From: Candidatus Berkelbacteria bacterium | Lineage (GTDB): Bacteria; Patescibacteriota; UBA1384; VFKW01 | Reading direction: 5' to 3' | Assembly: GCA_009885355.1 (NCBI GenBank) | Contig: VFKW01000035.1 | Span: 1 to 45,458 of the forward strand | DNA: 45,458 nucleotides | In this document: piece by piece, positions 10,471-45,396 of the stretch | Position numbering within the stretch: position 1 is the stretch's first letter | How the letters are laid out: the number at the start of each line of letters is the position of its first letter | Notes under the pieces: model-generated | What the model saw: the letters and a program-made list of their open reading frames with translations, nothing else | The model's database searches: none | Told to the model about the DNA's origin: nothing | Program-made: the position numbers and the translations under genes

Positions 10471-10490
10471 GGTTCTATATATTCTAAATT

Positions 10491-13447: not shown

Positions 13448-13472
13448 TGGTTGGATCATAAGTTCCCGTCGC

Positions 13473-13501: not shown

Positions 13502-13508
13502 AAAATAG

Positions 13509-22927: not shown

Positions 22928-23048
22928 GATCCCTCCCTTTTAAGGTTAAATTGATCCTTGCGTAGGGTGCATCATACCGCCCTGGTTTATTAAGTCCAGA
23001 CCTAATATATCTGAACTTAAAAATAAGGTTTACCTAGCCCTTCTGAAG

Positions 23049-23057
23049 TGATATGAT
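23049..23057 (+). promoter_or_regulatory. Candidate extended -10 element upstream of hsdM
   Basis: TGATATGAT (TGnTATGAT) lies 35-43 nt before ATG 23092, and GAGGA is at 23081-23085. Pattern call only. Confidence 0.25.
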
Positions 23058-23091
23058 ACAGGTGTAATTTAGTAATCAATGAGGACTATTT

Positions 23092-27164: not shown

Positions 27165-27173
27165 GGGGTAAAA

Positions 27174-30932: not shown

Positions 30933-30937
30933 TTTAT

Positions 30938-31324: not shown

Positions 31325-31359
31325 AACTCCTTATTTGAAAAATTAATCTTTTAAGTCAT

Positions 31360-32982
31360 CTACGCTGATATCCCAATTTCTTTATACTTTAATGGGAGTG
31401 AAAAGTAAAAGGTTGATCCTTTGCCTTTTGCTGAATCAAATTGAATTTTTCCACCATGGAGCTCTATGATATTTTTAGAGATAAACAATCCTAGCCCTGT
31501 ACCTTGTTGTTCCTGAGGATTATCAGGGTCAAATCTTCCAGCTTGGAAGAATTTTTCAAAGAGATGCTTTTGCTCTTCTTTTTCTATGCCAACACCAGAA
31601 TCTCCGATGGTAATAATCATATCATCATCTTTTGCCTTAGCAGTTACAGCGATTTTACCATTCTCAGTGAATTTATTAGCGTTGCTGATTAAATTTGTAA
31701 GTACCTCGGTGATCTTACTCTGGTCGATCATTATTTTAGGAAGAGATTGATTGAGGCGTATATAAGCGATAGAATTACCTTTTTCTTTAGCTTTCAATTC
31801 AAAGCCAGATACGATCGAAGAAATCAGGGAATCAATATCAGCTTCTGTGACGTTGATCTTCATACGATGCTGATCGATCCTCGCCACATTGAGAATGTCT
31901 TTTGATAATTGTGCCAGACGCTTAGTATCGGTTAATATTGGCTGTAAAAACTTTTTCTGTTCATCATTCAAATGACACATGTTTTCTTCAATCGCCATGC
32001 TTAATCTACCTTGAATTACGGTGATTGGAGTATTTAATTCGTGAGTTGCCATCTGTAGGAATTCATCTTTCATTCGGTCAAGATCGACTAATTCCCTCTT
32101 GTCTTGTTCTAATTGGTGAGTCAAATTCTGCAATTGCCTATTATGAGCAATCTCTTTTTTTACTGAAGCGATAATCAAATACCCCCCGTAAGCTACAATT
32201 ATCAATATTGATGCATTAATTATTCCTCTCCCAAGATTCTCCGATGATAATGTTTGTACTAAAAGTGCCAGAATAACTAATAGTACTGCTAATTCTGTCA
32301 CGATTACTTTGACATTTAATAATCCTCGTTCAATAATCGCGTAAGTAGTAAATACTAAAAAGATAATTACACTATATATGCCCCACTTGTAAATGTTTGG
32401 GTTATGTGTAATTACTGGCATAACTAAACTAAAAAATAATGCCAAAAAAGCGTATATCGAAAAACCCAATAAAACAACAAAAATTTGCTCCTTTCTAATG
32501 CCCTTTTCCTGTCGATAATTAACAAAAAGTTTTATAATGCTAGCAACAGCATAAGATAAAAGAAACAAAAAATACGGAATATAGAAGAAACCGGGTGAAA
32601 CTTTAAAATTTACCCCTTCATCCGGGGTTGCTTTTGCTACAAGATTCATAAAAGAAAGTATAATGAATATTAAAGGCATCACCGATAATATATGCCACCA
32701 GCTTTTATAGACATTGGGGCTGTTAGGAAAAGCTATGCTAAACATTAGAAAGAAGTAAACAACTAATGACGTGGCTGCAAACCCGATGTTTACAAAAGGC
32801 TGCACCGTATCGATGGTCAAGAATTTAGCCACTAAACTAGATGATATCCAAACTGATGCAGAAAAATTGAAAGCAAAAAATAGCCGATTGCTAATATTTT
32901 TATAATCGTTGGCTAAAACTATGCAGCCAAGTAGAAGACTTATAACTGCAATCAACGCAGTAATAATGGTATCAAAATTCAT
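31360..32982 (-). CDS. Sensor histidine kinase with multi-TM N-terminal domain
   Basis: 540 aa. The first ~270 aa are almost entirely hydrophobic helices. The H-box is MATHELNTPIT, the N-box NLISNANKF, G1 IGDSGVGI and G2 GTGLGL. Confidence 0.9.
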   Translation of the reverse strand: MNFDTIITALIAVISLLLGCIVLANDYKNISNRLFFAFNFSASVWISSSLVAKFLTIDTVQPFVNIGFAATSLVVYFFLMFSIAFPNSPNVYKSWWHILSVMPLIFIILSFMNLVAKATPDEGVNFKVSPGFFYIPYFLFLLSYAVASIIKLFVNYRQEKGIRKEQIFVVLLGFSIYAFLALFFSLVMPVITHNPNIYKWGIYSVIIFLVFTTYAIIERGLLNVKVIVTELAVLLVILALLVQTLSSENLGRGIINASILIIVAYGGYLIIASVKKEIAHNRQLQNLTHQLEQDKRELVDLDRMKDEFLQMATHELNTPITVIQGRLSMAIEENMCHLNDEQKKFLQPILTDTKRLAQLSKDILNVARIDQHRMKINVTEADIDSLISSIVSGFELKAKEKGNSIAYIRLNQSLPKIMIDQSKITEVLTNLISNANKFTENGKIAVTAKAKDDDMIITIGDSGVGIEKEEQKHLFEKFFQAGRFDPDNPQEQQGTGLGLFISKNIIELHGGKIQFDSAKGKGSTFYFSLPLKYKEIGISA

Positions 32983-33088
32983 AGAATTCCTATTGTTCGT
33001 TAGCGTGTTAAATTGATATGACTATGAATTAAGTATACAATAATTAATTTGATATTTACAATTTAGATAAAAAAATGGACTGACCGCA

Positions 33089-33754
33089 TTAAGCAATCAG
33101 TCCTTGAGTAACTACCATATTCTTCTCTAAATTAGGATTAAGTATTTCTACCATTGTGCTGAGACCGCAAGATCGAGGGTCTCCGCCTCCTTCAACATAA
33201 TCCTTGAATATTATAGGAGGCTCAATGGATACAAGGCCATAATTACCCAGAACTCGAAGCTCCGGATCTAATGGTCTTTCGTTTCTTTGGCTACGCACAT
33301 ACTCTTCAGGACTCATACTCTCCTGAAAACGTTGATAGCCAGGGATTCTGGTCATAAATCGACAGCCTCGCTTCCTATTAGCAACCATATAGTCGTAAAG
33401 GAAACTAATCAGGCTTTCGGTCATGCCGGCTCGGCAGCCCTTAGGCGTTACTGCGAGACCAACTCCATGAAGCCATTCACCGTATGGGTTATGGGTTCTT
33501 GTGAAGTGGCCGGAATCAGTTGCTTCATCCCAAGTCGGACGAAGGATGGTATCATCGTTTGCAAGCTGCACGGAAACATATCCTTCGATGCATCCGTCGA
33601 TCTCACCTACCACTATCCCGCATTCCGGAAAAGTGGTTATTCGATCGATGAACATCTGTCTGTTTCCTTGCCAGACGCCCTTCCACGCCTGATCACAAAC
33701 ACGTATGACATCATCAATATCTGCCACCACAGCCGGTCTTACTTTCCTGTTCAT
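33089..33754 (-). CDS. GNAT-like acetyltransferase (tentative)
   Basis: The ORF opens at 33775, but GAGGTG lies 7 nt before ATG 33754 (MNRKVRPAVVADIDDV..). ..LHGVGLAVTPKGCRAGMTESLISFLYDY.. resembles a GNAT acetyl-CoA-binding segment. G+C is visibly higher than in flanking DNA. Confidence 0.55.
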   Translation of the reverse strand: MNRKVRPAVVADIDDVIRVCDQAWKGVWQGNRQMFIDRITTFPECGIVVGEIDGCIEGYVSVQLANDDTILRPTWDEATDSGHFTRTHNPYGEWLHGVGLAVTPKGCRAGMTESLISFLYDYMVANRKRGCRFMTRIPGYQRFQESMSPEEYVRSQRNERPLDPELRVLGNYGLVSIEPPIIFKDYVEGGGDPRSCGLSTMVEILNPNLEKNMVVTQGLIA

Positions 33755-33962
33755 TTGATTCACCTCGACTCCCACCGTTATGGTGGCGTGTATTTTGATA
33801 TCAGGTCGCTTACCTGTTATATAACAGTAAGGTAACTGAGCTTTTTATGCTCAATCTATCCTACTAGCAAAGCCAATGCCTCTTAGTTTTCAATGTACTC
33901 ATCGCTTATTATACCATAATGAATTTGATATAATATTGTAACACAAAAATCTCTATCTGTCA

Positions 33963-33980
33963 ATATGGTTAGGACTCGAT
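33963..33980. repeat. Left flanking direct repeat of the IS (ATATGGTTAGGACTCGAT)
   Basis: Exact 18-bp match to 35372-35389, immediately outside the left inverted repeat. Confidence 0.8.
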
Positions 33981-35371
33981 GTTAGCGCAATATAGTAATG
34001 TCACCTTAATGGGCAATATAGGAATGTCCCCTTTCTCTGGTTTTTAGGTTATACTGTTTAGTTAACTAAATAAGAGAAAGGGTAAAGTGGAGACATTCAA
34101 TATGAGCCGAAGGGAAATGGGACAGATTAATATATTTGAAAAGCTAAAGGATAAACAAATGAAACAAAAAGAAGCCGCCAAGATATTAAATTTAAGCACG
34201 CGTCAGATTAAACGGAAACTAAAAGTATATCGCATATCCGGAGAAATAAGCCTGGTTAATAAAAGTCGAGGCAAACCTGGAAATCACCGTCATACAGATG
34301 AATTTTGGACTAAAGTAATTACATTGGTAAAAGATAAGTACCCAGACTTCGGGCCAACATTTGCCTCCGAAAAACTTTTAGAAAATCACAACATAATTGT
34401 CAATCATGAATCTTTAAGACTAAAAATGATCGATGAAATATTATGGAAAGCTAAGCGAAGGAAAGCTTCACCTCGACAAATGCGCGAGCGCAAAGAATGC
34501 TTTGGTGAGCTGGTACAGTTGGATGGCTCTGATCATGCTTGGTTCGAAGATAGAGCGCCGAAATGTTGTCTAATCGCCTTCATCGACGATGCCACCAGCC
34601 AGATCGTTTATCTGGAATTTACCAGTGGTGAAACCACCGAAAACTTGATGAGAACAACCCGGGAATACCTAGAAACATATGGTAAGCCAGTCGCCCTGTA
34701 TTCCGATCGTGGCGGAGTTTACAAGGTTAACCTTAATAATCCCAATGATGACAAATTAACCCAGTATGGCAGATCGTTAGAAGAGCTGGACATCAGCCAC
34801 ATCCACGCCCGATCACCCCAGGCCAAAGGACGAGTAGAGCGACTATTTGGAACCCTGCAGGATCGTCTGGTGAAGGAATTAAGACTAAAAGGAATCTCAT
34901 CAATTGAAGAGGCAAATAAGTATTTAAAAGAAGAATATATTGCCATGCATAATGCTAAATTCGCAGAAGTTCCAAAAAGTAAAACTGACCTTCATCAGTC
35001 AATTGATGGTTATGAGCTTAATAATATTTTCTGTCTAAAAGAAGATCGTAAGATTAACAATGACTTTACCATTGCCTACAAAACCAAATGGCTGCAACTT
35101 ACAAAAACCCAACCAACTATTATCTACCCCAAAGAAACCGTCCAAGTCTGGCAGCATTTAGATGGGACAATAACAATTCACCAAAACAAGAGTACCCTTA
35201 ATTTTAAAGAAGTATGCCAAAGACCAATTATTGAAAAAAGAAAGGAGGAAATAAAGCCACGAATTCCATGGGCCCCGTCAGCTACACACCCATGGAGAGA
35301 GCCTGTTTTAGCGCATTAAAAAAGTGACATTTCTATTTTGCAAAAAAGTGACATTTCTATTTTGTGTTGAC
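33981..35371 (+). mobile_element. Insertion sequence, ISNCY-like (about 1.39 kb)
   Basis: A single transposase ORF bounded by ~50-bp terminal inverted repeats. The left end carries GCAATATAG(T/G)AATGTC(A/C)C twice, and the right end carries GTGACATTTCTATTTTG twice. It is flanked by an exact 18-bp direct repeat. Confidence 0.8.
34087..35319 (+). CDS. Transposase (HTH + rve/DDE integrase core; ISNCY-family-like)
   Basis: 410 aa with an N-terminal HTH (..QKEAAKILNLSTRQIKRKLK..). The core contains ..FGELVQLDGSDHAWFEDRAPKCCLIAFIDDAT.., ..ALYSDRGGVY.. and ..RSPQAKGRVERLFGTLQDRL... The start is either GTG 34087 or ATG 34102. The family call is from memory of ISNCY transposases. Confidence 0.85.
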   Translation: METFNMSRREMGQINIFEKLKDKQMKQKEAAKILNLSTRQIKRKLKVYRISGEISLVNKSRGKPGNHRHTDEFWTKVITLVKDKYPDFGPTFASEKLLENHNIIVNHESLRLKMIDEILWKAKRRKASPRQMRERKECFGELVQLDGSDHAWFEDRAPKCCLIAFIDDATSQIVYLEFTSGETTENLMRTTREYLETYGKPVALYSDRGGVYKVNLNNPNDDKLTQYGRSLEELDISHIHARSPQAKGRVERLFGTLQDRLVKELRLKGISSIEEANKYLKEEYIAMHNAKFAEVPKSKTDLHQSIDGYELNNIFCLKEDRKINNDFTIAYKTKWLQLTKTQPTIIYPKETVQVWQHLDGTITIHQNKSTLNFKEVCQRPIIEKRKEEIKPRIPWAPSATHPWREPVLAH

Positions 35372-35389
35372 ATATGGTTAGGACTCGAT
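35372..35389. repeat. Right flanking direct repeat of the IS (ATATGGTTAGGACTCGAT)
   Basis: Exact 18-bp match to 33963-33980. Confidence 0.8.
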
Positions 35390-36303: not shown

Positions 36304-36909
36304 ATGGGTAATCTAAAATTAATTTTTGATTTAATCGGCGTTATAACAGAAGAAGAGTATATTGCGACAAAGCTTGTGTATCCATTGGTTGAAAAATCGG
36401 TATCATATGATTTGTTTAAGAAAAAATACCTGCTTTATTGTATTGATAACATTGATCGCAGCGATTTTTGGCAAGGAATTGTTCCAGAGGTTGAGATATC
36501 CTTAATGGAGGAAGAAATTATTAGCCGTGTTGCTTTAAATTTAGACGTTGTCGAACTAATAAAAGATTATAACAATAAAGGGGTGAACATATTTCTAGCG
36601 TCAGAGATTCCTGCAAAATGGGGAGAGATGATACTTGCAAAAGCCGGACTCAAGGATGTTTTTAAAGAAAAGTTTTATAGTAGTACTCTCAGATCAACCA
36701 AACCATTTAAAAATTATTATGATAAAATTTTTAAACCAGAATTTATGCAAAGTTCTCATGTTATATATATTGATGACACTAATTATAACGTCGAAGTAGT
36801 TAGAGGATACGGGGCTGAAGCGATCTGGTTCAACAAGACAGGAGAAGATGGACTCATCGAGCATCTAACAGCGGGAAACGCAAAAGAGATAAAAAATATT
36901 ATCGGGTAA
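36304..36909 (+). CDS. HAD-superfamily hydrolase-like protein with non-canonical motif I
   Basis: 201 aa. Motif I reads LIFDLIGVIT (DxIxV instead of DxDxT/V). Motif II is FLASE, the Lys is in ..STKPF.., and motif IV is YIDDTNYN. Confidence 0.7.
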   Translation: MGNLKLIFDLIGVITEEEYIATKLVYPLVEKSVSYDLFKKKYLLYCIDNIDRSDFWQGIVPEVEISLMEEEIISRVALNLDVVELIKDYNNKGVNIFLASEIPAKWGEMILAKAGLKDVFKEKFYSSTLRSTKPFKNYYDKIFKPEFMQSSHVIYIDDTNYNVEVVRGYGAEAIWFNKTGEDGLIEHLTAGNAKEIKNIIG

Positions 36910-36979: not shown

Positions 36980-38023
36980 ATGCTTAAAATTATTAATTTC
37001 CAAGATAAAATTAAAGAACTTAATCCGCCGTATGGCTCATTGAGTGTGGACGATAATAATTATTTCTATAAAATCGTCGACAATCACTTGGCCAAACTGG
37101 AAGTTTTAGGACATGAGAAACTTTCCTACAATTATCCGGTTGCGAAGCTGATAAGCGATTATCCTTTCGATAATAAAAGAACGGCTCTGATTTTTGAATA
37201 TGAGAATTCTGTTGGTAAAGAATCCGGACTACTAGTGGATTTATTTGCAGCCGAGGAGATAATTAATAATAAATTTACAAATATATTAGAGATCTATAAT
37301 AAGGTTTTTGCCGCAACATTAAGAGAAGATAAAGGTGAAAGCTCGGATATTCTTTTCAAATCAAGAGTCGAAACGAGGTTAAAGAAATATTATGATAAAA
37401 AATTCATTAGCCAAGTGAATGGATACCAATATAACCTCAACGGTAGAAAGATTACGCTGGATCTTGAAAAAATTCTAGAATCAATTGAGGTCTTTTACAA
37501 TAACCGATCCAAAACATGGTGCGTTTTATCGCAATGCGATCCAAATGACTTAAACATTGGCACCAAGCCCATTGTTTTAGATTATTTGGCCGGTGGTTGG
37601 AACCCATTAATGGCTGAATTTGCCACACTCTTTTGGTATCAGTTGGCTCAGGGCAGCTACCTTGCTCTTAAATACAACGCACGAGCGTTTAAAAATCATG
37701 AAAATATATTCTCAAAAATAGAGACTGTCACTTTCAATAATAATCAATTATCTCATCAAATAACGCCATTGAGAAAAGAATTTACGCAACTATACATTAA
37801 GCAAGTAATTGATCCTTTAATGCTAACTATTGGTGATTACCCAAATTGGTATGAGGAATTCAAAAATTTCATCGTCATGAAAATTCTTTGTGTTTTTGAT
37901 GTAACCAAAATGGATAAAGAAGACATGTTTTTATCTTTAGGATATCTTCAATTATTCTATGGCCAAGAATTTAAAAAGCCGATAGATTTAATGCAATTTT
38001 TTGAGGAAAATAATGGAAAATAA
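36980..38023 (+). CDS. Divergent APH/choline-kinase-fold phosphotransferase
   Basis: 347 aa. SQCDPNDLNIG matches the HxDxxxxN catalytic loop with Cys in place of His. It is followed by VLDYLAGGWNPLMAEFA, similar to the IDxE..G..D(L/F)A metal-binding segment of APH-type kinases. Confidence 0.6.
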   Translation: MLKIINFQDKIKELNPPYGSLSVDDNNYFYKIVDNHLAKLEVLGHEKLSYNYPVAKLISDYPFDNKRTALIFEYENSVGKESGLLVDLFAAEEIINNKFTNILEIYNKVFAATLREDKGESSDILFKSRVETRLKKYYDKKFISQVNGYQYNLNGRKITLDLEKILESIEVFYNNRSKTWCVLSQCDPNDLNIGTKPIVLDYLAGGWNPLMAEFATLFWYQLAQGSYLALKYNARAFKNHENIFSKIETVTFNNNQLSHQITPLRKEFTQLYIKQVIDPLMLTIGDYPNWYEEFKNFIVMKILCVFDVTKMDKEDMFLSLGYLQLFYGQEFKKPIDLMQFFEENNGK

Positions 38024-38708
38024 TCAATATTATAAAGTTGAGAATGATTTTTTCAAAATTATCGAGCGTCTTGAAAACGATAACCTGCTATTTTATTGCG
38101 TAACTGGCAGTTTGGCACGAAACGACCTGATTGAAGGCTGGAGCGATATCGATCTATTGATGGTTTTTAAAGAATATAGCTCAGATCTTTTCTCCCATAT
38201 AAATGAGGCTCTATCCGGTAATAAAAGCATGATTAAAATCGGTACAACTTTTTATTCAAGGAAAGAATTTAATAGTAAAGAATTATTTAAGGACCCAAAA
38301 ACTCGCCATGCAATCGAGTATATTAATAAAGCAATTTATATACCCAGAATTAATAACCAAACTATTGTATTACCAGAGTTAGATAAAAAAATGACTATGA
38401 CCTACGACTTAGTGGACATGGCGAAATATCTTCATAATATAAGAAGGGAATTAATTGATCAAACAAAATTTAATGAACGATCAGTATATAAACTAATAAT
38501 CTCCGTTATAAAAATGCTGCTTTATCGACAGAATATTCAAGCTTTAGGATATAAAGATGCTTTAGCAATGGCGAAGGATAATTTGACTTATTTCAATATT
38601 GAATTGCCGCTACCGATGGAAATACTAGAATTTCCTAAGGATAAAAATAAAAGATATAATAATTATATTAAATTTTTAAACTGGTTAAAGGAGTACAGAA
38701 TTGCTTAA
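38013..38708 (+). CDS. Pol-beta-superfamily nucleotidyltransferase (ANT/Lnu-like layout)
   Basis: The track ORF starts at TTG 38001, but GAGGA lies 5 nt before ATG 38013. ..FYCVTGSLARNDLIEGWSDIDLLMVF.. matches the G-S-x(n)-D-x-D NTase motif, and a helical C-terminal domain follows. It overlaps the upstream stop by 11 nt. Confidence 0.75.
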   Translation: MENNQYYKVENDFFKIIERLENDNLLFYCVTGSLARNDLIEGWSDIDLLMVFKEYSSDLFSHINEALSGNKSMIKIGTTFYSRKEFNSKELFKDPKTRHAIEYINKAIYIPRINNQTIVLPELDKKMTMTYDLVDMAKYLHNIRRELIDQTKFNERSVYKLIISVIKMLLYRQNIQALGYKDALAMAKDNLTYFNIELPLPMEILEFPKDKNKRYNNYIKFLNWLKEYRIA

Positions 38709-40350
38709 TTTTGATAAACCAAACAATAATAAAATCATATTCGGATATAATACAGGCCATCATGGCGGCGGTGCAATTATCACTGGTGGCAGTCTAGCTA
38801 GTATTTCAGAAGAAAGACTCTCTAGACAAAAATACTCTTCAGGTTATTTATATTCACTATTCTACCTTATTAATCGTATGAATCTAAAAATTCAGGACAT
38901 TGATTTGTTTGTTTCAAGCAGCTACCATAACCCACTTGAAGATGATTATCAGGGGATATTAGCGTCTTTAGGTGTAGCTCGAGAAAAATTTGTCAGTGTT
39001 GACCATCATTTATCACATGCTTACAGCACATATTTCCTATCCCCGTTCAATAAAGCATTAGTAGTGGTGGTAGATGGTTTAGGGAATTTAAATGATACGG
39101 AAAGTTATTACTTAGCCGAGGGCGAAGATATTAAAAAAATCGGGGGTAATGATCCCAACCGCTCTATCCATAAAGGTATCGGACGTGCATATGAATCATT
39201 CACGAATTTTTGTGGTTGGAGTGCTCAAGAGGCAGGTAAAACGATGGGATTGGCATCATATGGACAAGAGAAGAATCTAGGAGTAGATCTCTATGAAATT
39301 AATAATAAAAATCAGATTAGCAGCAAATTGGAAGGTAAATACTCACAAGGTGCACTCAAGATTACAAGGGACAATAACCTAGATTTTGGAGTGCCATTTT
39401 CAGAATTTAACAATAAAGATGCAGCTTTTTTTGTTCAGGATAGGACAGAAAAAATAATCATCGAATTGATAAATAATCTGTATGAACAATACAAAATTAC
39501 TGATCTTTGTCTGGCAGGAGGGGTGTTCCTTAATAGTATTATTAATAAAAAGATATTGGACCAAACTCCGATAAAAAATATATTTGTACCACCGTGCTGT
39601 GATGATACAGGCCAACCATTAGGGAATGCACTATATGGTTATCATGGATATTTTGGTATTCCAAAGAATATCCAGTTAAATCATGCGTATTTGGGAATGG
39701 ATTATGAGGAGAAAGAAATTATTGATGTGTTAGAAAAGAAACAGGAAATATATTCATTGCCGTACGAGGTAAAATCTTTCAACTTTAAATATAAATATCA
39801 TAAAGATATCGCTTCCATTACAGCAGAATTATTGGCTAATGGTAAAATAATTGGTTGGTTCCAAGGTGGCTCGGAAATTGGGCCCAGAGCGTTAGGCCAT
39901 CGTAGCATATTAACGGCGCCTTATCCTGCCGAGATGAAAGACATCCTAAATGAAAAAGTGAAACATAGAGAAGGATTTCGTCCCTTCGCGCCATCAGTGT
40001 TGGAAGAATATGCACAAGATTTCTTTGAGCTTGAAGTGCCAAGTCCATTTATGTTATTAGTTGCTAAGGCAAAAGAAGATAAAGTAGATAAAATACCAGC
40101 TGCTTTACATGTCGATAAAACAGCCCGCGTGCAAACTGTTAATAAAAAAGACAATGGCATCTACTATGATCTGATAAAAGAATTTTATAAAATCACAGAT
40201 GTGCCAGTACTGCTTAACACTTCATTTAATGATTCAGGTGAGCCAGTAGTAGAAACGCCAAAGGATGCCTTAAGAATGTTCTGTACAACACCAATTGATT
40301 ATTTAGTACTAGGGAATTACCTGGTTTCAAAAAGTAGTAGCGATGAATAA
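38701..40350 (+). CDS. Carbamoyltransferase (NodU/CmcH/TobZ family)
   Basis: 549 aa, starting at TTG 38701 with AAGGAG 7 nt upstream. Family motifs present: ..DHHLSHAYSTYFLSPF.., GPRALGHRSIL, ..KHREGFRPFAPSVLEE.., ..DKTARVQTV.. and LLNTSFNDSGEPVV. Confidence 0.88.
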   Translation: MLNFDKPNNNKIIFGYNTGHHGGGAIITGGSLASISEERLSRQKYSSGYLYSLFYLINRMNLKIQDIDLFVSSSYHNPLEDDYQGILASLGVAREKFVSVDHHLSHAYSTYFLSPFNKALVVVVDGLGNLNDTESYYLAEGEDIKKIGGNDPNRSIHKGIGRAYESFTNFCGWSAQEAGKTMGLASYGQEKNLGVDLYEINNKNQISSKLEGKYSQGALKITRDNNLDFGVPFSEFNNKDAAFFVQDRTEKIIIELINNLYEQYKITDLCLAGGVFLNSIINKKILDQTPIKNIFVPPCCDDTGQPLGNALYGYHGYFGIPKNIQLNHAYLGMDYEEKEIIDVLEKKQEIYSLPYEVKSFNFKYKYHKDIASITAELLANGKIIGWFQGGSEIGPRALGHRSILTAPYPAEMKDILNEKVKHREGFRPFAPSVLEEYAQDFFELEVPSPFMLLVAKAKEDKVDKIPAALHVDKTARVQTVNKKDNGIYYDLIKEFYKITDVPVLLNTSFNDSGEPVVETPKDALRMFCTTPIDYLVLGNYLVSKSSSDE

Positions 40351-41437
40351 TCCAAACAAACTATCATTTCAGCTTCCATCTGGACAAGAAGAAGTTTATA
40401 TAGGGCATGGCGTACTGGATTATTATGGCAAACTACTTGAAAAAAATAATTATGATAAAGTGATCACCATTGCTGATAAAAATGCTTACAAACACTATAA
40501 GTTAGGAATTAATAATCTATTGCTTAAAAGCGTCGATAAAAAGATTATTTTTGTAAGCGCCAAGCCTCATTATAAAGATTATAAACACGCTGCTCATTTG
40601 CTTAATAAGCTAATTGAATTAAAAGCCAGTCGCAAAACTTGTCTTTTGGCAATCGGGGGCGGTTATGTATCAGACATAACGGGTTTCGTTGCCTCTATTT
40701 ATATGAGAGGAATTGACTTTATCCAAGTACCGACAACATATATGTCTGCTGCAGATATTGTAATTGGGAAAGTGGCAGTTAATTATAACGGACACAAAAA
40801 TCTGGTTGGATCGTTTTACTCACCAAGACAGGTTTTTGTAGACACTGATTTTTTAACAACACTACCACCACGAGAGGTTGTTAATGGATTAGTAGAAATC
40901 TGGAAACATGCTTTACTTGTACAAAATAACCAAATTATTGGTTTAATAAGCGATCATCTGAATACTAAAAAATTTGATAATTCAGACACGATAATAGAGT
41001 TCTCAATCAGATCAAAAATGAGCTTTGTCGAAAAAGATTATTACGATACTGAAGATTCTCACAAGGCTTTGAGTTTAGGCCATACGTTAGCAAATTATTT
41101 AGAGAGAAATACGACAATTAGACACGGTGAAGCAGTTTTTTATGGGATAATTTTTTCAGCAATTTTAGCGCATAATAGCAATCTTATTAATACTTCCCGT
41201 TATGATTCGATTATTGAGTTAGGCAAAAAGTTTGAAAAATACTTCGGCATATTTCCGCAAGTTAAAAAATTGGTCTGTAATAATAATATTTTAACTGAAT
41301 TGAAGTTTGATAAAATTAATCATTCGGGTAACTATTCTTTTGTCTTATTAACGGATAACAACTTTTTAATAAAGAGAGACTTGGATAAAGGTGCTTTAGA
41401 AAACGCAATCAGAGAATTTTGCAATTTGGCTCTATAG
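40343..41437 (+). CDS. DHQS-like sugar-phosphate cyclase (probably not a bona fide AroB)
   Basis: 364 aa with an ATGAATAA overlap onto the upstream gene. The core ..LLAIGGGYVSDITGFVASIYMRGIDFIQVPTTYMSAADIVIGKVAVNYNGHKNLVGSFYSP.. and ..HGEAVFYG.. is DHQS-like. However ..HKALSLGHTLANYLE.. replaces the canonical ..R..LLN.GHT.GHA.E... Confidence 0.8.
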   Translation: MNNPNKLSFQLPSGQEEVYIGHGVLDYYGKLLEKNNYDKVITIADKNAYKHYKLGINNLLLKSVDKKIIFVSAKPHYKDYKHAAHLLNKLIELKASRKTCLLAIGGGYVSDITGFVASIYMRGIDFIQVPTTYMSAADIVIGKVAVNYNGHKNLVGSFYSPRQVFVDTDFLTTLPPREVVNGLVEIWKHALLVQNNQIIGLISDHLNTKKFDNSDTIIEFSIRSKMSFVEKDYYDTEDSHKALSLGHTLANYLERNTTIRHGEAVFYGIIFSAILAHNSNLINTSRYDSIIELGKKFEKYFGIFPQVKKLVCNNNILTELKFDKINHSGNYSFVLLTDNNFLIKRDLDKGALENAIREFCNLAL

Positions 41438-41499
41438 CAATTGACAGGTTAGGTTTTTTGATGTAAAATATAACTCTATCATTGATAGGGGGTATTCGC

Positions 41500-41901
41500 A
41501 TGCGAGTAAGAGCAGTAATAGTTGATAACCAGCGCATCCTTCTCATCGAGAGGACGAAGCAGGGAAACCATTATTGGATTTTCCCAGGGGGTGGGGTTGA
41601 AACATATGATTCCACGCCAGAATCGGCTTTGTTGCGCGAATGCCAAGAAGAGCTTGGTGTTGAGGTAGAAGTGGGACCACTCTTCGATACTTTCAAGGGC
41701 AATGAAGAGGAGCTATTCTTTCTTAGCCGCATAATAAGCGGCACTATCGATAAGATCGGCGGCCCTGAATCTACCCGAGACCCAGCCCTTTGGGGAGAAT
41801 ACAAACCTGTTTGGCTCACAATTGAGGAGATTGCAGAAAGAAATGTTCTGCCAGAACCGATAAAACGAGCTATACTAGACCGTGGGGTCGGCAATTCCTA
41901 G
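41500..41901 (+). CDS. Nudix hydrolase (higher-GC)
   Basis: The track ORF starts at TTG 41482, but AGGGGG lies 7 nt before ATG 41500 (MRVRAVIV..). The Nudix box is GGGVETYDSTPESALLRECQEELGVEV. Confidence 0.85.
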   Translation: MRVRAVIVDNQRILLIERTKQGNHYWIFPGGGVETYDSTPESALLRECQEELGVEVEVGPLFDTFKGNEEELFFLSRIISGTIDKIGGPESTRDPALWGEYKPVWLTIEEIAERNVLPEPIKRAILDRGVGNS

Positions 41902-41922
41902 GGGCTGCCGACCCCTTTTTTT
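41884..41922. terminator. Bidirectional rho-independent terminator between convergent Nudix genes
   Basis: GGGGTCGGCA (41884-41893) pairs perfectly with TGCCGACCCC (41906-41915) across a 12-nt loop, followed by TTTTTTT (41916-41922). Confidence 0.7.
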
Positions 41923-42358
41923 ATACTTGATTTATTAAAAAATCATTAGCTTCTTTGAGAATTCTTATACAACTTTCGTGTGATATTTTTTCTAGAGCTC
42001 GATCGTAATCAAGCCAGGCAAAATCAATAATTTCTTCAGTTCTAATAATTTCAGCTTTTAATTCAGCAATTTTCCCTAGATAATAAGTTACAGTTTTATC
42101 AAGGATTTTTTCTCCCTTTTCGAATTTGTATTTTTCTTCAAAAGTTGGCTTTGGTAATATTTCAAACTTAGTAATACCTGTTTCTTCATAAATTTCTCGT
42201 TGAATAGTTTCGGGTATGCTTTCACCTGCTTCAGGATGACCCTTTGGGAACGCCCAATGCCCTGCTTTATGGCAAATTAATAAATAGATAAGCTTATCGC
42301 CCTCTTTGTAGTAAGGAATTATTCCAAATGATTGATCTTTAATTATTTCTTTTTCCAT
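41921..42358 (-). CDS. Nudix hydrolase (low-GC)
   Basis: The ORF opens at 42436, but the likely start is ATG 42358 (MEKEIIKDQSFGIIPYY..). The Nudix box is GHWAFPKGHPEAGESIPETIQREIYEETGI. Confidence 0.85.
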   Translation of the reverse strand: MEKEIIKDQSFGIIPYYKEGDKLIYLLICHKAGHWAFPKGHPEAGESIPETIQREIYEETGITKFEILPKPTFEEKYKFEKGEKILDKTVTYYLGKIAELKAEIIRTEEIIDFAWLDYDRALEKISHESCIRILKEANDFLINQV

Positions 42359-42435
42359 GAATACAATATAGCACTTTTTGATTAAAAAAATAAGGCGGCG
42401 GAACAATGGTGTTCCTACCGCCTTGGTTGTGGCCA

Positions 42436-43602
42436 TTAGAGGCCGAGCTTTTTTGCGAATCTCTGTGTGTTTTCGTCGATCCCATCAGACTCATTGCTAA
42501 ACACCAGATCGGCGATATCTTCGACTTGATGAGCACCGCGAGATCGCTTGGTTTCATCTTTGCTTCGTACCTTCGATGTGGCTTCCTCAATAGTCATTCC
42601 TGTCTTGGCGACAGTACGACTGATCCTCAGATCTTCAGGGGCCGTAAGGAACGCAATCGTGAAACGATCTCCTAGGAGCAACTTGAAGTACGCCGGGAGA
42701 ATTGGATCATGGATGCTCTCGACTGATGCTCGAGTCACATGGGGATGGCAGTGGAGGAACGAAAGGTACTCGAACCCCATACTCCCCGCGTGCACATCCT
42801 GGCCAGCCCTAATCAAGATGTCCTCAAAATATCGCAACTTGAGGCGGTAAAAGCCATACTTCTTGGAAAGCGCATCCCCGAAACCGCTCTTGCCAGATTC
42901 ACTGAGACCGCCTAAAGCGATTCCTCTTTCGAAGTTCTCGCATGCTAACGGCAGACTAATCCCCAAGTCGAGATTAGCCCGGGAGCGAATCTCGTTCTGG
43001 ATATTCAATATACAGTCATTCACTACCACCCTCCGCTCTTGGGGGATATTATCATAGTAGTGTTCGATAGTAGTGCCCAGATAGCCCTGGTACGATGCAT
43101 ATCGTGCCGCTTGTTCGGGCGTGTACTGGTTGGTTCTGATATCTATGATCTGGAGTAGCGTCTTTATTTTCTGCTGATAGACACTATTCGGAACTAGTAA
43201 CAGTTCATATTCCTCCGGGGTGTATTCCAAGAGGTCCGCGAACATGTTATCAACTCGTTCATAGGCATCGTCTAGACTGCCTAGGTGCTTTGTAGAATAT
43301 GTCGCTGCAAGGACAGCCTTGAACATCAGGGTCCCTCGGTCAAATATGTTGACTTTGTCCGAGATACAGCTCTGGTTACGAATGTTGAGTGATTGGATGA
43401 TGATCTGAGCCAAGTCATCGAATTCGACCCGACCGAACCACCATTCGTGAGATGCTGTTTCTGATTGTGCTGGCCAATTGTCGCCATATTCGACGAGTCT
43501 CTTAAGTCGATGGGTAATCTTACGAGTACCCAAGCTAGATAAAAAACTGATCTGCTGTGTCTTTCCGATCCCGTCAAAACCACTGATTGCCAATTTTGAC
43601 AA
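42436..43602 (-). CDS. Two-domain P-loop nucleotide-kinase-like protein
   Basis: The ORF opens at GTG 43611, which abuts AGGAGG. TTG 43602 lies 7 nt after the SD and is the more likely start. The N-terminal half has ISGFDGIGKTQQ (dTMP-kinase-like P-loop). The C-terminal half has a second P-loop, GGLSESGKSGFGDAL (CMP/adenylate-kinase-like). G+C is higher than in the surrounding cassette. Confidence 0.65.
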   Translation of the reverse strand: MSKLAISGFDGIGKTQQISFLSSLGTRKITHRLKRLVEYGDNWPAQSETASHEWWFGRVEFDDLAQIIIQSLNIRNQSCISDKVNIFDRGTLMFKAVLAATYSTKHLGSLDDAYERVDNMFADLLEYTPEEYELLLVPNSVYQQKIKTLLQIIDIRTNQYTPEQAARYASYQGYLGTTIEHYYDNIPQERRVVVNDCILNIQNEIRSRANLDLGISLPLACENFERGIALGGLSESGKSGFGDALSKKYGFYRLKLRYFEDILIRAGQDVHAGSMGFEYLSFLHCHPHVTRASVESIHDPILPAYFKLLLGDRFTIAFLTAPEDLRISRTVAKTGMTIEEATSKVRSKDETKRSRGAHQVEDIADLVFSNESDGIDENTQRFAKKLGL

Positions 43603-43722
43603 AGTAATCACCTCCTAGGTTAAGATTGAGCTTGACATATAATTATACCAAATCTATCGAAAAAATCAATACCTTCGATCGTTGGAATGTGACTTGAATT
43701 TTTGATGGATAACTGATATAAT

Positions 43723-44607
43723 GTGCAGGATCATAGAATACCGTTGCCACTGCCTAGAGCACAACAAAGGGAGGTGATGAGGTTGGGCAAAGTATTTTCT
43801 TGGCAGCAAGTTTCCAAGAGATCAGTACCTTCAACAGAAGATTTCCTTGATGTGTCGTGCTATCTTGACGATAGAATCAAGGAGAGTGACCAAGTATTAT
43901 GTGCATTAAAGCTCGGCTCTGTCCTCAGAAATGATTTTAATGCGCGCAGCGACCTTGACTACTTGGTGATTTATTCATCTGAGCATAGGTTGCTTGCAAT
44001 GAAACTCTTTGGTGATTTTATAGACTATGCATCTAGACATAATGTACCATTGGGACTAATACCAATCAGCGAAATTGCATCAACCCAGTCCTTGCACTCA
44101 ATCACCAGGTACTTTTCAGGCCATATGCGTTGGTCGGCTGAACATGATGGGGCGATCAAGGGCAATCCAATTGAGACGATCAGCTTGGATCATCTCCACT
44201 CAAGTTTGAACATGGAAGTGGGAGACTATCTGCGGAATCGGTTGCTGACTCTAGAAAAGCTCTCCATTGAAATGGCTAGATGCAGCAATTCCATTTCAAA
44301 TGAGCACCTCTCAAAAGCCATGGGTATACCCGTCCATGTTGCACGTCAGATGCTCTGGATGAAGGGTGAAGATAGAGGTGAAGGGTCAAAATCAGTAGTC
44401 TGTGATGCTTACAGGGAATTATTTCCGGGTGAATTGGCAGATATACTGGCTCAGCTGGTAACGGCAGACGGTCACTACACCGAGGAGCTAAACAAGCAAC
44501 TCGTGAGACAAGACGAAGGAACCTATCGCCAAGCGCTGGGCATATTAGCAGATCTAATTCCTTTTATATATGAGTTTACAGAGAAGAACGCTCTGTTGAC
44601 CATATAG
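43723..44607 (+). CDS. Pol-beta-superfamily nucleotidyltransferase with helical C-terminal domain
   Basis: 294 aa. ..LKLGSVLRNDFNARSDLDYLVIY.. matches the G-S-x(n)-D-x-D motif. The start is uncertain: GTG 43723, ATG 43777 or TTG 43783 after GGGAGG. G+C is higher than in the surrounding cassette. Confidence 0.7.
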   Translation: MQDHRIPLPLPRAQQREVMRLGKVFSWQQVSKRSVPSTEDFLDVSCYLDDRIKESDQVLCALKLGSVLRNDFNARSDLDYLVIYSSEHRLLAMKLFGDFIDYASRHNVPLGLIPISEIASTQSLHSITRYFSGHMRWSAEHDGAIKGNPIETISLDHLHSSLNMEVGDYLRNRLLTLEKLSIEMARCSNSISNEHLSKAMGIPVHVARQMLWMKGEDRGEGSKSVVCDAYRELFPGELADILAQLVTADGHYTEELNKQLVRQDEGTYRQALGILADLIPFIYEFTEKNALLTI

Positions 44608-44622: not shown

Positions 44623-44651
44623 GTCCGGTAATTCGTTACCGGACTCTTTTT
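44623..44651 (+). terminator. Rho-independent terminator after the 43723 gene
   Basis: GTCCGGTAA-TTCG-TTACCGGAC followed by TCTTTTT. Confidence 0.7.
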
Positions 44652-44820: not shown

Positions 44821-45396
44821 ATGTTTAAGAAAAAAGTATGTGGAATGAAACAATTTAAACCAAATAAAATAATTATTCTGCTCGCACCTTCTGGCTGCGG
44901 CAAAGATACTGTAATTAACTTATTAAAGACTGCTACCAACCTTAAAGTTGAGGCAGTAAAAAGACACACCACCAGAGAACTGCGGTTTGATGATAATGGT
45001 GAATATGAATTCGTATCACATTGCGAATTTGAAAATTTATTAAAGGATGATTTCTTCATATTGCCCAATATCTTTGCTGGACATTACTATGGGACATCAG
45101 TTAATGAAATAAAAGCTGTCGTTGACCGAAACCACATACCAATTTTGAAAGGTATGATTTATCAAGTTGAAGATTCTAAGCTTCGTTTAAAAAGGTTATT
45201 TCCAGAGAAGGAAGTAATTACTATATATATGAAAACCGATCCCGAAGATGCATGGCGTAATGTTTTAAAGCAGCGCAAATTTGAAGACTACCTGAAACGC
45301 ATAGAAGAGTCCAATAAAGAATACGAAGCAGCTCTTGGATCACATAAACATCTAGTATCAAATCATCTTAGTCTTTGTGCAATATCTCAAGCTTAA
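44821..45396 (+). CDS. Guanylate-kinase-like P-loop kinase
   Basis: 191 aa. IIILLAPSGCGKDTVINLL resembles the Gmk P-loop GPSGxGK. The start is either ATG 44821 or ATG 44845. Confidence 0.6.
   Translation: MFKKKVCGMKQFKPNKIIILLAPSGCGKDTVINLLKTATNLKVEAVKRHTTRELRFDDNGEYEFVSHCEFENLLKDDFFILPNIFAGHYYGTSVNEIKAVVDRNHIPILKGMIYQVEDSKLRLKRLFPEKEVITIYMKTDPEDAWRNVLKQRKFEDYLKRIEESNKEYEAALGSHKHLVSNHLSLCAISQA

Follow-up and report, generated by a model that had tools for sequence, protein, structure and literature searches.

The window, a 45,458-nucleotide contig (VFKW01000035.1) from a Candidatus Berkelbacteria bacterium, carries four overlapping forward-strand genes that encode an APH-fold (eukaryotic-protein-kinase-like) small-molecule kinase of an orphan family (K347, 347 aa, 36980..38023), a Pol-beta-type nucleotidyltransferase with the two-domain aminoglycoside-nucleotidyltransferase architecture (NT231, 231 aa from its ATG, 38013..38708), a carbamoyltransferase of the NodU/CmcH/TobZ family that contains Kae1-like and YrdC-like domains (CT549, 549 aa, TTG start, 38701..40350) and a DHQS-like cyclase (364 aa, 40343..41437). 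Consecutive genes overlap by 11, 8 and 8 nt, and the gene for a HAD-superfamily hydrolase (36304..36909, +) stops 70 nt before the K347 reading frame, the same arrangement that the preliminary description gave. Shine-Dalgarno-like sequences (GAGGA and AAGGAG) precede the NT231 and CT549 starts; a TTG at 38001 is a possible alternative start for NT231, and the TTG start of CT549 aligns with ATG starts in 12 orthologues (MLNFD versus MLKFD). At the corresponding junctions of orthologous operons the genes again overlap or are separated by at most 2 nt, indicating that this tight coupling is conserved rather than a product of chance.

The four genes are contained in a larger operon that has not been described before and occurs mainly in ultra-small (Patescibacteria-like) bacteria. 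Its last forward-strand gene encodes a MutT-type Nudix hydrolase (NUDa139, 41482..41901, +, with an ATG at 41500 as the likelier start) and is followed by a terminator-like hairpin (41900..41916; AGGGGCTGCCGACCCCT and then a T run) that separates two convergent transcription units. On the reverse strand lie a tandem P-loop kinase (P391, 42436..43611, −), whose N half resembles thymidylate kinase and whose C half resembles adenylate/cytidylate kinase, and, downstream of it with a 1-nt overlap, a second Nudix hydrolase (NUDb171, 41921..42436, −). About 900 nt upstream of the cluster, and outside the pathway, is a forward-strand IS element (33963..35389, +) with exact 18-nt direct repeats at its ends (33963-33980 and 35372-35389) and an rve-type transposase (34087-35319) that matches HTH_28 and rve profiles weakly. 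The window also carries a type I restriction-modification system, a recombinase and a guanylate kinase gene (44821-45396).

We found the cassette in at least 43 non-redundant loci, a recurrence that marks it as a real unit; its genes lie together in dozens of other genomes and metagenomes, which answers the objection, foreseen in the preliminary description, that no other genome might share the combination. Co-occurrence was counted over 20 non-redundant, well-flanked loci, and all 20 contain K347, NT231, one or two MutT-type Nudix proteins and P391 (~390 aa), with NT231 adjacent to K347 in every case. The boundary drawn earlier around four genes was therefore too narrow, since the unit extends through both Nudix genes to P391. 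CT549 and the cyclase, previously placed at the heart of the pathway, are optional (12/20 loci each). The HAD gene is an accessory that travels with the cyclase: it occurs in 6/20 loci, exclusively with a cyclase present, and its orthologues directly precede the cyclase gene in L008-L013, L026, L034-L038, L051 and L052. An SDR gene is found in 5/20 loci, exclusively where the cyclase is missing; of the eight loci that lack a cyclase, three lack the SDR as well.

In the closest relatives of the window locus, L031 and L070, the kinase, nucleotidyltransferase and Nudix genes converge with P391 and both the carbamoyltransferase and the cyclase are missing, which identifies these two genes as a plug-in between the nucleotidyltransferase and Nudix genes. 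A series of cyclase, kinase, nucleotidyltransferase and phosphatase, as first proposed, therefore cannot be the general logic of the pathway. Gut-metagenome variants carry SDR, His-phosphatase and HD genes in place of the cyclase and HAD, and in L025 and L029 a fusion of NDK and a P-loop kinase substitutes for P391 beside a Nudix-NTase fusion and a cyclase. Every pair of core functions is linked by fusion (Nudix-K347, K347-Nudix, NTase-Nudix, Nudix-NTase, Nudix-P391, P391-NTase and P391-NTase-Nudix), and an adenosine deaminase gene lies directly upstream in at least nine distinct loci. That Nudix, nucleotide kinases, NDK and adenosine deaminase keep recurring as partners, and are found fused, places nucleotides at the centre of the pathway and makes them more than the activating handle envisaged at the outset. 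In L030 a distant K347 homologue is found beside a HAD, a GT1 and a cyclase that is likewise distant.

All four folds assigned in the preliminary description were borne out by profile, PDB or AF2/Foldseek matches. K347 has no match in Pfam, NCBIfam, PDB sequences or PADLOC, but its AF2 model (pLDDT 94.6) matches APH(4)-Ia, APH(3'), APH(9), APH(2'') and FN3K (Foldseek E 1e-5, TM 0.5-0.58; 0.51/0.58 and E 1e-5 for APH(4)-Ia), and residues K31, E41, D187, N192 and D201 are invariant among 45 homologues. Its best viral structural neighbours include phage proteins annotated as (kinase +) NTP transferase/guanylyltransferase fusions. NT231 matches PF01909 (29.2 bits, cut-off 21) and conserves the GS...DxD...D motif (G32-S33...D45-x-D47...D94); over its full length, its model (pLDDT 94.1) matches ANT(4'), AAD(9) and AadA (Foldseek E 3e-6, TM up to 0.64). 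The structural neighbours of the two proteins are thus APH and ANT enzymes, as had been anticipated from their aminoglycoside-modifying relatives, with all fold matches at 10-15% identity and neither PF01636 nor any ANT family matched by either protein.

The cyclase matches PF01761 (124 bits) and PF24621 (66 bits). Its best HMM is NCBIfam aroB (TIGR01357), which it matches at 237.6 bits, below the cut-off of 305, and PDB sequence searches rank DHQS (142 bits) and DOIS (131) above DDGS (85) and ValA (79), with DHQS and BtrC as the best matches. DHQS and BtrC have the same fold as this protein, which also keeps their NAD-binding GGG motif, their E, H and H metal ligands and the majority of their phosphate-binding positions. 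However, the DHQS motif RxxLNxGHTxGH is replaced by HKALSLGHTLAN, a change kept in 104-109 of 110 clade members (clade signature HKALS[LY]GHTFAN), so that the invariant R, N and H of DHQS become H, S and N, whereas BtrC has G, E and H at these positions. It further differs from both enzymes in a one-residue deletion in the GGK loop and in having no shikimate or 2-deoxystreptamine gene context; no other shikimate gene occurs in the window or in any locus. By its sequence, the cyclase belongs to a distinct clade with specific changes at three DHQS-invariant positions, and is not a housekeeping AroB, a possibility that the preliminary description had raised against its own proposal.

CT549 is the best-conserved gene of the cluster (58-67% identity between loci). 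As in TobZ, NodU and CmcH, both domains are recognised at high score (PF16861, 236 bits; PF02543, 122 bits), the sequence shows an HHxxH metal motif, and PDB sequence matches include a novobiocin carbamoyltransferase, GdmN and TobZ (E 1e-59 to 1e-64). CT549 scores far below the cut-off of the NodU equivalog model (145 versus 1000), and its Nudix and nucleotide-kinase partners are unmatched by any characterised carbamoyltransferase cluster. The HAD protein matches PF13419 (35.4 bits, cut-off 23.8) and has an invariant nucleophile, D9, but the Asp+2 general acid/base position is I, L, F or V in 8/8 orthologues, leaving insecure the phosphatase step to which it had been assigned. NUDa139 (PF00293, 62.5 bits) has MutT and CTP pyrophosphohydrolase as best PDB matches and is 74% identical to the Nudix gene product at the matching position in L031. 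Orthologues of NUDb171 (PF00293, 57.7 bits) occupy the matching position in L039, L054 and L064 and, in L025 and L029, make up the Nudix portion of the Nudix-NTase fusion. Invariant features of P391 are the lid arginines and a pair of Walker A motifs (G.DG.GKSQQ and GGLSECGKSS); PDB profile searches pair its C half with 3lw7 and 3h0k, both archaeal AdkA-like proteins (E 6e-5), and give a weak Tmk match for its N half.

The fixed core of kinase, nucleotidyltransferase, Nudix and double nucleotide kinase, with cyclase and carbamoyltransferase as add-ons, indicates that the operon probably makes a small nucleotide-linked metabolite. Our preferred reading, a tentative one at about 40% confidence, is that a small hydroxylated molecule, in the window a carbamoylated carbocycle, is first phosphorylated and then nucleotidylated by a modular pathway that secures its own supply of nucleotides and their clean-up. 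K347 would phosphorylate a hydroxyl on a small (pseudo)sugar-like molecule, NT231 would attach a nucleoside monophosphate to give an NDP-X or X-O-NMP conjugate, P391 would rebuild or supply the NTP (NMP to NDP to NTP), and the Nudix enzymes may cleave the NTP or the NDP-X conjugate as control or clean-up. Since kinases come with the operon, a non-canonical nucleotide may be involved, and the adenosine deaminase often encoded alongside is a hint that its base is hypoxanthine or adenine. In the window's version, the DHQS-like cyclase would form the acceptor X, a carbocycle, using a neutral sugar phosphate rather than DAHP, partnered by the atypical HAD, and the TobZ-like enzyme would O-carbamoylate the molecule; such a route should yield a small carbamoylated cyclitol phospho-nucleotide conjugate.

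Kinase-nucleotidyltransferase-phosphatase logic is established in the ADP-heptose, UDP-MurNAc salvage, NDP-valienol and cobalamin nucleotide-loop pathways. As in validamycin and acarbose C7-cyclitol activation (EEVS cyclase, ValC/AcbM kinase, VldB/AcbR nucleotidyltransferase, HAD-type phosphatase), cyclase, kinase, nucleotidyltransferase and HAD are encoded together, and the same progression from carbocycle to phosphate to NDP-carbocycle could apply. In contrast to those pathways, the operon's kinase is APH-fold rather than ROK-type, its nucleotidyltransferase Pol-beta/ANT-fold rather than GlgC-type, and its cyclase nearer DHQS and DOIS than ValA; it has no pseudoglycosyltransferase, aminotransferase or dehydrogenase, its cyclase is dispensable, and two Nudix enzymes and a tandem nucleotide kinase are obligatory. 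The absence of an aminotransferase or glycosyltransferase from the cluster agrees with the preliminary description. APH-fold kinases include the anomeric sugar kinases NahK, AmgK and MtnK, and anomeric-sugar salvage or activation employs MupP (HAD), AmgK (APH-fold kinase) and MurU (nucleotidyltransferase), as well as NahK and HldE/GmhB. The MupP/AmgK/MurU series likewise places a HAD, an APH-fold small-molecule kinase and a nucleotidyltransferase in succession to make an NDP-sugar, and the kinase and NTP-transferase fusions annotated among the phage look-alikes of K347 are a further likeness. However, MurU and HldE are Rossmann-type nucleotidyltransferases, K347 does not match PF01636, and the operon has no peptidoglycan or heptose context and adds Nudix, P391, carbamoyltransferase and cyclase.

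Several observations count against this sugar-activation-like reading. None of the loci encodes a glycosyl-, pseudoglycosyl- or phosphotransferase that would consume NDP-X, and the ANT-fold enzymes known so far O-adenylylate hydroxyls and do not form NDP-sugars. The loci without a cyclase, three of which also lack the SDR, leave the acceptor X undefined for the minimal core. Two Nudix enzymes and a nucleotidyltransferase appear futile if all share one conjugate, and the HAD does not have the canonical phosphatase acid/base residue.

The main rival, possible but on balance doubtful, is that the operon produces a non-canonical nucleotide, an antimetabolite or chain-terminator-like compound directed against phages or neighbouring cells. 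The substrate of K347 would then be a nucleoside or nucleotide, three kinase domains (K347 and both P391 halves) would raise the modified nucleoside to its triphosphate, and Nudix would provide an initial NTP-to-NMP step or act as a safety valve. Oxidation, phosphate elimination and reduction on the ribose would fall to an NAD-dependent module, either the DHQS-like cyclase or the SDR with HD, and the carbamoyltransferase would cap a hydroxyl. The universal presence of Nudix and P391, the recurrence of NDK, adenosine deaminase and HD/His-phosphatase, and the fusions among core proteins favour such a product; a dedicated NMP-to-NTP kinase pair would be hard to justify with canonical nucleotides, and the mutual exclusion of cyclase and SDR fits an interchangeable NAD-dependent redox step. 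Mobile or defence-like neighbours point the same way: restriction-modification, recombinase and IS in the window, AbiE in L027, methyltransferases and a resolvase in L001 and L005, and a Lactococcus plasmid copy. Precedents also exist in the puromycin and 2'-aminodeoxyadenosine pathways (Nudix Pur7 and AdaJ, NAD-dependent Pur10, phosphatase Pur3), in cordycepin synthesis (kinase, HD and reductase; Cns1-3) and in prokaryotic viperins, whose genes adjoin nucleotide kinases. These systems similarly combine Nudix, NAD-dependent oxidoreductase, phosphatase and kinases and are associated with an adenosine-deaminase theme, but none has a DHQS-like enzyme, an APH-fold kinase, an ANT-fold nucleotidyltransferase or a TobZ-like enzyme, and the operon has no aminotransferase or radical-SAM enzyme. 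We know of no DHQS-superfamily enzyme that acts on a nucleotide, and a base-attaching enzyme for building a carbocyclic nucleoside is missing. PADLOC matched generic Nudix and NTase models and no system beyond these, the family was not found in 50,697 phage genomes nor K347 in IMG/VR, and K347 and NT231 are closer to small-molecule antibiotic-modifying enzymes than to nucleoside kinases or polymerases.

A resistance or detoxification cassette, an alternative already offered in the preliminary description, would have the APH-like kinase, ANT-like nucleotidyltransferase and carbamoyltransferase inactivate a foreign aminoglycoside- or aminocyclitol-type toxin. In its favour, the closest solved structures are APH(4), APH(3'), ANT(4'), AAD(9) and AadA, a distant Lactococcus copy is accompanied by a hexapeptide acyltransferase, and the context is mobile. 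PDB coverage of these folds is skewed to resistance enzymes, however, and the low identity and unmatched PF01636 and ANT families, together with a cyclase, HAD, two Nudix enzymes and a tandem nucleotide kinase that resistance would not need yet that are strictly syntenic and fused across 43 lineages, make detoxification very improbable. Slimmer still is the chance of a housekeeping role, in which a shikimate AroB and/or routine purine nucleotide salvage genes are clustered by happenstance. Patescibacteria rely on salvage, aroB is the best HMM for the cyclase, and adenosine deaminase, Nudix, NMP kinases and the guanylate kinase encoded at 44821-45396 are salvage-type functions. Against this stand the sub-threshold aroB score, the altered DHQS signature residues and the want of other shikimate genes; moreover, the K347 family, present in only 19 of 185,579 species genomes, is far too rare for housekeeping, and its spread is patchy.

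The K347 family comprises 62 clusters at 90% identity, with 335 representatives among 1.84e9 proteins, and the NT231 family comprises 67 clusters in all. Searches for literature, defence-system and phage matches to the operon returned none. Members of the K347 family come from Patescibacteria and gut MAGs, from one viral contig of high GC content and from Lactococcus, where the copy is IS6-flanked and carried on a conjugative plasmid. The operon is modular and horizontally mobile, and the window carries one version of it. This patchy, mobile distribution suggests a role in antagonism or defence.

The four genes of the cassette lie in the window exactly where the preliminary description had placed them, with open reading frames at 36980-38023 (the APH-fold kinase K347), 38013-38708 (the ANT-fold nucleotidyltransferase NT231), 38701-40350 (the carbamoyltransferase CT549) and 40343-41437 (the DHQS-like cyclase CYC364). 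The successive overlaps of 11, 8 and 8 nt were borne out, as was the HAD-family gene at 36304-36909, which ends 70 nt upstream of the kinase frame. On alignment, the N-terminus produced by the TTG start of CT549 (MLNFD...) matches ATG-started N-termini in 12 orthologues, and Shine-Dalgarno-like motifs lie ahead of NT231 and CT549, the second and third genes. Corresponding junctions overlap or nearly abut in orthologous operons, indicating that the tight coupling is conserved and not a matter of chance. While the four genes are real, they are not the complete unit, as the Nudix and P391 genes just beyond them belong to it too. The first Nudix gene (41482-41901) is followed by a terminator-like hairpin at 41900-41916; the second (41921-42436) lies on the strand opposite to the cassette and overlaps by 1 base with P391, the tandem P-loop kinase gene at 42436-43611 on that same strand.

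We gathered related loci by exact-protein look-ups, a scan of one genome per species and a metagenome scan, annotated them by BLAST against the window proteins, and obtained 64 loci with a K347 homologue, which fall into 43 groups at 90% identity. Occurrence was counted in the 20 groups having at least 3.5 kb of upstream and 6 kb of downstream sequence. The ANT-fold nucleotidyltransferase, one or two Nudix genes and the approximately 390-aa tandem P-loop protein (P391) were each present in all 20 groups, and this bare core stands alone in three lineages. The carbamoyltransferase and the cyclase each occurred in 12 of the 20 groups, the HAD gene in six (only alongside the cyclase), a short-chain dehydrogenase (SDR) in five (only without the cyclase) and an adenosine deaminase in five (at least nine distinct loci overall). 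The real unit is larger than the cassette first described, and it is modular.

The core proteins are tied together by fusions across lineages, which join Nudix-K347, K347-Nudix, NTase-Nudix, Nudix-NTase, Nudix-P391 and P391-NTase and include an 810-aa P391-NTase-Nudix triple fusion. The nearest relatives of the window locus, L031 and L070 (54-56% identical in K347, 74% in Nudix and 68% in P391), consist of kinase, nucleotidyltransferase and Nudix genes convergent with P391 and nothing more; relative to them, the window has a carbamoyltransferase and a cyclase between its nucleotidyltransferase and Nudix genes and a HAD gene added upstream. Locus L039 has a full layout identical to that of the window. 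The carbamoyltransferase and the cyclase are plug-ins to the core. Two gut-metagenome forms were found, one with Nudix, His-phosphatase, HD and SDR genes upstream of K347 followed by a carbamoyltransferase and the triple fusion, the other with an SDR, an unknown gene and a canonical HAD upstream and carbamoyltransferase, nucleotidyltransferase, Nudix and further P-loop and His-phosphatase genes downstream. More distantly, a Paceibacterota-type variant (L025, L029) carries an NDK and P-loop kinase fusion and a Nudix-NTase fusion directly upstream of its cyclase, and a Magasanikbacteria-type contig (L030) pairs a distant K347 homologue with a distant cyclase, a HAD and a GT1 gene, the nucleotide genes being absent. 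One high-GC K347 relative has an apparent C-terminal histidine-phosphatase domain, read from an RHG motif alone, and in the multidomain K347 relatives P0294 and P0307 the N-terminal 300-400 aa match nothing in the cluster.

Several neighbours of the cluster at other loci were also recorded. The gene immediately upstream of the cluster in L003/L004/L014, L008, L010, L012, L027, L033-L035, L040, L051, L052 and L054 is of the adenosine-deaminase family (PF00962) and spans, for instance, 6927-7847 in L003; these copies are 62-79% identical among themselves, and the window has none. A class Ib aminoacyl-tRNA synthetase of the TyrRS/TrpRS family adjoins the cluster in L005 (7089-9320) and L027 (11252-12271), which may be coincidence or may represent a resistance-type paralogue. 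L005 also contains a chorismate-mutase and methyltransferase fusion near the cluster.

All fold assignments of the preliminary description, for kinase, nucleotidyltransferase, carbamoyltransferase and cyclase, proved correct. K347 has no Pfam or NCBIfam match at E <= 0.01, and thus is not in PF01636 by sequence, and it matched neither PDB sequences nor PADLOC. Its AlphaFold2 model, built from an alignment of 45 homologues (pLDDT 94.6), has aminoglycoside phosphotransferases and fructosamine-3-kinase as nearest solved structures (E 1e-5, TM ~0.5-0.58, 10-12% identity), with APH(4)-Ia matched by Foldseek at E 1e-5 and TM 0.51/0.58. The catalytic set is invariant, comprising K31 (beta3 Lys), E41 (alphaC Glu), the D187-x4-N192 loop and D201 (metal-binding Asp). 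The model thus predicts a bilobal APH-type kinase fold for K347, though its sequence falls outside PF01636. NT231 passes PF01909 at 29 bits and keeps the GS...DxD...D triad; its model (pLDDT 94.1) matches ANT(4'), AAD(9) and AadA across both domains by Foldseek (TM 0.55-0.64), at 11-16% identity to solved ANT enzymes. As modelled, NT231 has the architecture of aminoglycoside nucleotidyltransferases, with a predicted N-terminal Pol-beta domain carrying GS...DxD and a C-terminal helical substrate domain. By its domain matches CT549 is assigned unambiguously to the NodU/CmcH/TobZ family, with a Kae1-like N-terminal domain (PF02543, 122 bits against a cut-off of 24), a YrdC-like C-terminal domain (PF16861, 236 bits against a cut-off of 27) and PDB sequence matches at E 1e-59 to 1e-64.

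In P391 both Walker A motifs are conserved, as are lid arginines; the C-terminal half resembles adenylate-kinase-like proteins of archaea, and the N-terminal half shows a weak match to thymidylate kinase. The families of three core proteins are tiny and have virtually no annotation: no Pfam family scores above cut-off for the APH-fold kinase or the tandem P-loop kinase, and the ANT-fold nucleotidyltransferase matches the generic PF01909 only. Motif I of the HAD protein reads FDLIGV (FDLxGV in orthologues) and keeps the nucleophile Asp, and the general acid/base position at Asp+2 is occupied by I, L, F or V in eight of eight cluster orthologues, with DxD found only in the gut-variant HAD of L018. 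These motifs suggest that the HAD protein travelling with the cyclase may not be a simple phosphatase.

We then compared the cyclase with AroB and related enzymes. CYC364 is a member of the DHQS superfamily (PF01761, 124 bits; PF24621, 66 bits) with conserved motifs IGGGYVSD, GLVEIWK, GHT and RHGEAV; the NAD-binding GGGxxxD and the Glu/His/His metal ligands are present, and most phosphate-binding positions of DHQS are kept. Its score on the aroB equivalog model (NCBIfam TIGR01357) is 237.6 bits, below the cut-off of 305. On alignment to four DHQS structures, BtrC and a manually entered E. coli AroB sequence, the DHQS-invariant R-x-x-L-N-x-G-H-T-x-G-H reads H-K-A-L-S-L-G-H-T-L-A-N in CYC364, and the GGK loop is one residue shorter. 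The changed residues H, S and N are retained in 104, 109 and 109 of the 110 closest homologues, respectively, the source of every one of these homologues being a Patescibacteria-type MAG or an unlabelled metagenome contig. We take these positions to be Arg264, Asn268 and His275 in A. nidulans DHQS numbering; in that enzyme the Arg presumably contacts the carboxylate of DAHP, and the Asn and His its phosphate. The simplest inference from the alignment is that CYC364 would act on a neutral sugar phosphate, bound somewhat differently. No other shikimate-pathway gene lies within the 45-kb window or any fetched locus. The preliminary description had set its cyclitol proposal against a housekeeping AroB, and by the aroB score and the motif alignment CYC364 is not AroB; the annotation as 3-dehydroquinate synthase (EC 4.2.3.4) was rejected on the sub-threshold TIGR01357 score and the changed substrate-binding motif.

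Comparison with characterized cyclases and their pathways likewise revealed differences. In BtrC the three altered positions are occupied by G, E and H, with Glu at the Asn268 position in place of the Ser of CYC364, and the 2-deoxystreptamine pathway needs a partner aminotransferase and dehydrogenase, neither of which is in the window cluster. PDB sequence scores of CYC364 were 142 bits for DHQS, 85 for DDGS (5tpr) and 79 for ValA (4p53). Unlike the validamycin and acarbose C7-cyclitol clusters, which have an EEVS-clade cyclase, a ROK-type cyclitol kinase, a GlgC-type nucleotidyltransferase and a pseudoglycosyltransferase, the window has a cyclase nearer DHQS and DOIS and a kinase and nucleotidyltransferase of other folds, and no such transferase occurs across the 43 locus groups. 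CYC364 and its homologues appear from these comparisons to form a new cyclase clade.

The K347 family is rare: 5.8 billion sequences yielded 62 clusters, 1.84 billion yielded 335 representatives, and 19 of 185,579 species genomes have a member. Carrier record titles name Parcubacteria, Falkowbacteria, Saccharibacteria and Patescibacteria, and others bear ENA labels such as uncultured Clostridia, Bacilli or Gammaproteobacteria, given here as recorded. The conjugative Lactococcus lactis plasmid p275D (L069; NZ_CP016702.1, record 30819-34471) has a distant version of the core in a segment flanked by IS6, where a 709-aa P391-like and NTase protein and a hexapeptide acyltransferase accompany a K347-like gene that is annotated as two hypothetical ORFs and is possibly frameshifted. 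An IMG/VR search with P391 returned one distant match, on a high-GC viral contig (L028; IMGVR_UViG_2863349733_000003, 9880-13760) with a major capsid gene ~3 kb upstream. Besides a P391-NTase fusion, that stretch encodes a K347-like segment in a different frame, and an SDR lies next to it. A K347 homologue was absent from IMG/VR and from INPHARED phages. Mobile and defence-type neighbours comprise a type I R-M system, a serine recombinase by tRNA-Ser and an IS in the window, and AbiE, methyltransferases and a resolvase at other loci. No component or fusion protein had a system-specific or system-level match in PADLOC-DB v2; matches were generic, to Nudix (PDC-S07), a minimal NTase (PDC-S09, weak CD-NTase) and, for the neighbouring deaminase, CARF_ADA, where the 77-bit score reflects domain-level resemblance only. 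A full-text literature search found no description of the cluster.

In GC content, the kinase, nucleotidyltransferase, carbamoyltransferase and cyclase genes in the window stand 10-17 points below both the flanks and the genes for Nudix and P391. We dropped recent transfer into the window genome as the cause, as the contrast between this block and the Nudix and P391 genes recurs in five other lineages (L070, L031, L001, L011 and L003); it could reflect amino-acid composition or repeated transfer of the cassette from low-GC donors.

Elsewhere in the window, an IS-like element at 33963-35389 contains an HTH and rve-type transposase (34087-35319) between exact 18-nt direct repeats (33963-33980 and 35372-35389), and a perfect 23-nt tandem duplication (35318-35364) lies just upstream of the cluster. 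The tRNA-Ser(GGA)-associated stretch at 21089-29519 carries a large serine recombinase (21569-22927, minus strand) and then the type I R-M system, with an AAA_15/AAA_21 ATPase gene (24578-26005) between hsdM and hsdS. Its GC content is below that of the ATP-synthase, dnaG and rpoD region, and it may be an integrated island; no convincing att-type repeat bounding an island from tRNA-Ser was found in the window. Within the ATP synthase operon, a 680-aa ORF (6858-8900, minus strand) combines a Big_1 Ig-like match with a C-terminal ATP-synthase subunit c match (residues 613-676), and is either over-extended from an upstream GTG or a subunit c with an unusual N-terminal extension. Past P391, a gene at 43723-44607 with a promoter-like site of its own and a strong terminator (44623-44644) encodes a 294-aa protein with a minimal NTase motif (GS...SDLDYLV), which has no Pfam match and no homologue in any related locus; a guanylate-kinase-family gene (44821-45396, 58 bits) follows it.

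Our best explanation of the operon, to which we give a probability of about 40%, is a kinase-then-nucleotidyltransferase pathway with a nucleotide-handling core and, in the window, carbamoylated cyclitol add-ons. K347 would phosphorylate a hydroxyl of a small sugar- or pseudosugar-like molecule, NT231 would next add a nucleotide to the phosphorylated molecule, P391 (or the NDK and kinase fusion) would take NMP to NDP and NTP, and the Nudix enzymes would hydrolyse the NTP or an NDP-X conjugate. For the window add-ons, the cyclase would supply a carbocyclic acceptor, the atypical HAD protein would assist it and the TobZ-like enzyme would carbamoylate the molecule. The carbamoylated, nucleotide-linked cyclitol first proposed is retained for this locus, but the centre of the pathway shifts to the core, which is present in all 20 groups as against 12 for the carbamoyltransferase and cyclase. 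Kinase-then-nucleotidyltransferase logic is known from AmgK/MurU with MupP, HldE/GmhB, ValC/VldB and CobU/CobC, and these pathways, together with phage proteins that are structurally like K347 and carry NTP-transferase-fusion annotations, support it here. The weak points of this explanation are that nothing present would consume an NDP-X donor, that the bare core leaves its acceptor unspecified and that the HAD protein lacks Asp+2; to our knowledge, no ANT-type enzyme makes NDP-sugars.

If the operon makes a non-canonical nucleotide, several features are better explained: why Nudix and nucleotide-kinase genes are universal, why there is a dedicated NMP-to-NTP capacity and an adenosine deaminase, why cyclase and SDR interchange, and why the context is mobile. 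We nonetheless consider this reading somewhat unlikely, as it demands unprecedented chemistry from a DHQS-like enzyme and, were the product a carbocyclic nucleoside, would leave the operon with no base-attaching enzyme. A specific and, taken jointly, improbable version is a previously unknown, radical-SAM-independent route in which the DHQS-like enzyme, or the SDR with HD, would perform NAD-dependent oxidation, phosphate beta-elimination and re-reduction on a phosphorylated ribose or nucleotide instead of a free sugar phosphate; kinase, nucleotidyltransferase and carbamoyltransferase would block a ribose hydroxyl, three kinase domains would carry the product to the triphosphate, and Nudix and adenosine deaminase would shield the producer. 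If true, ultra-small episymbionts would gain a chain-terminator-like or toxic nucleotide for antiviral defence or host manipulation. Two other readings were rejected. A plain resistance cassette is very unlikely, leaving the conserved synteny with cyclase, Nudix genes and kinases unexplained, and housekeeping AroB or salvage, which accounts for neither the rarity of the family nor the changed active site, is likewise very unlikely.

Every component of the operon comes from a known superfamily, and kinase-then-nucleotidyltransferase activation of a cyclitol is known logic. No source searched describes their combination in Patescibacteria, in which a fixed core of APH-fold kinase, ANT-fold nucleotidyltransferase, Nudix and tandem nucleotide kinase is joined by exchangeable modules (cyclase or SDR, and carbamoyltransferase) and by what appears to be a new cyclase clade. 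This fixed nucleotide core with modules that can be swapped (cyclase or SDR; carbamoyl or acyl; deaminase) amounts to a natural experiment for function assignment, and the distant copy on the conjugative Lactococcus plasmid provides a tractable experimental entry point. Secondary metabolism is considered nearly absent from Patescibacteria, and a conserved, mobile small-molecule or nucleotide pathway of 7-9 genes in these organisms would offer a rare handle on the chemistry of episymbionts with hosts, competitors and phages.
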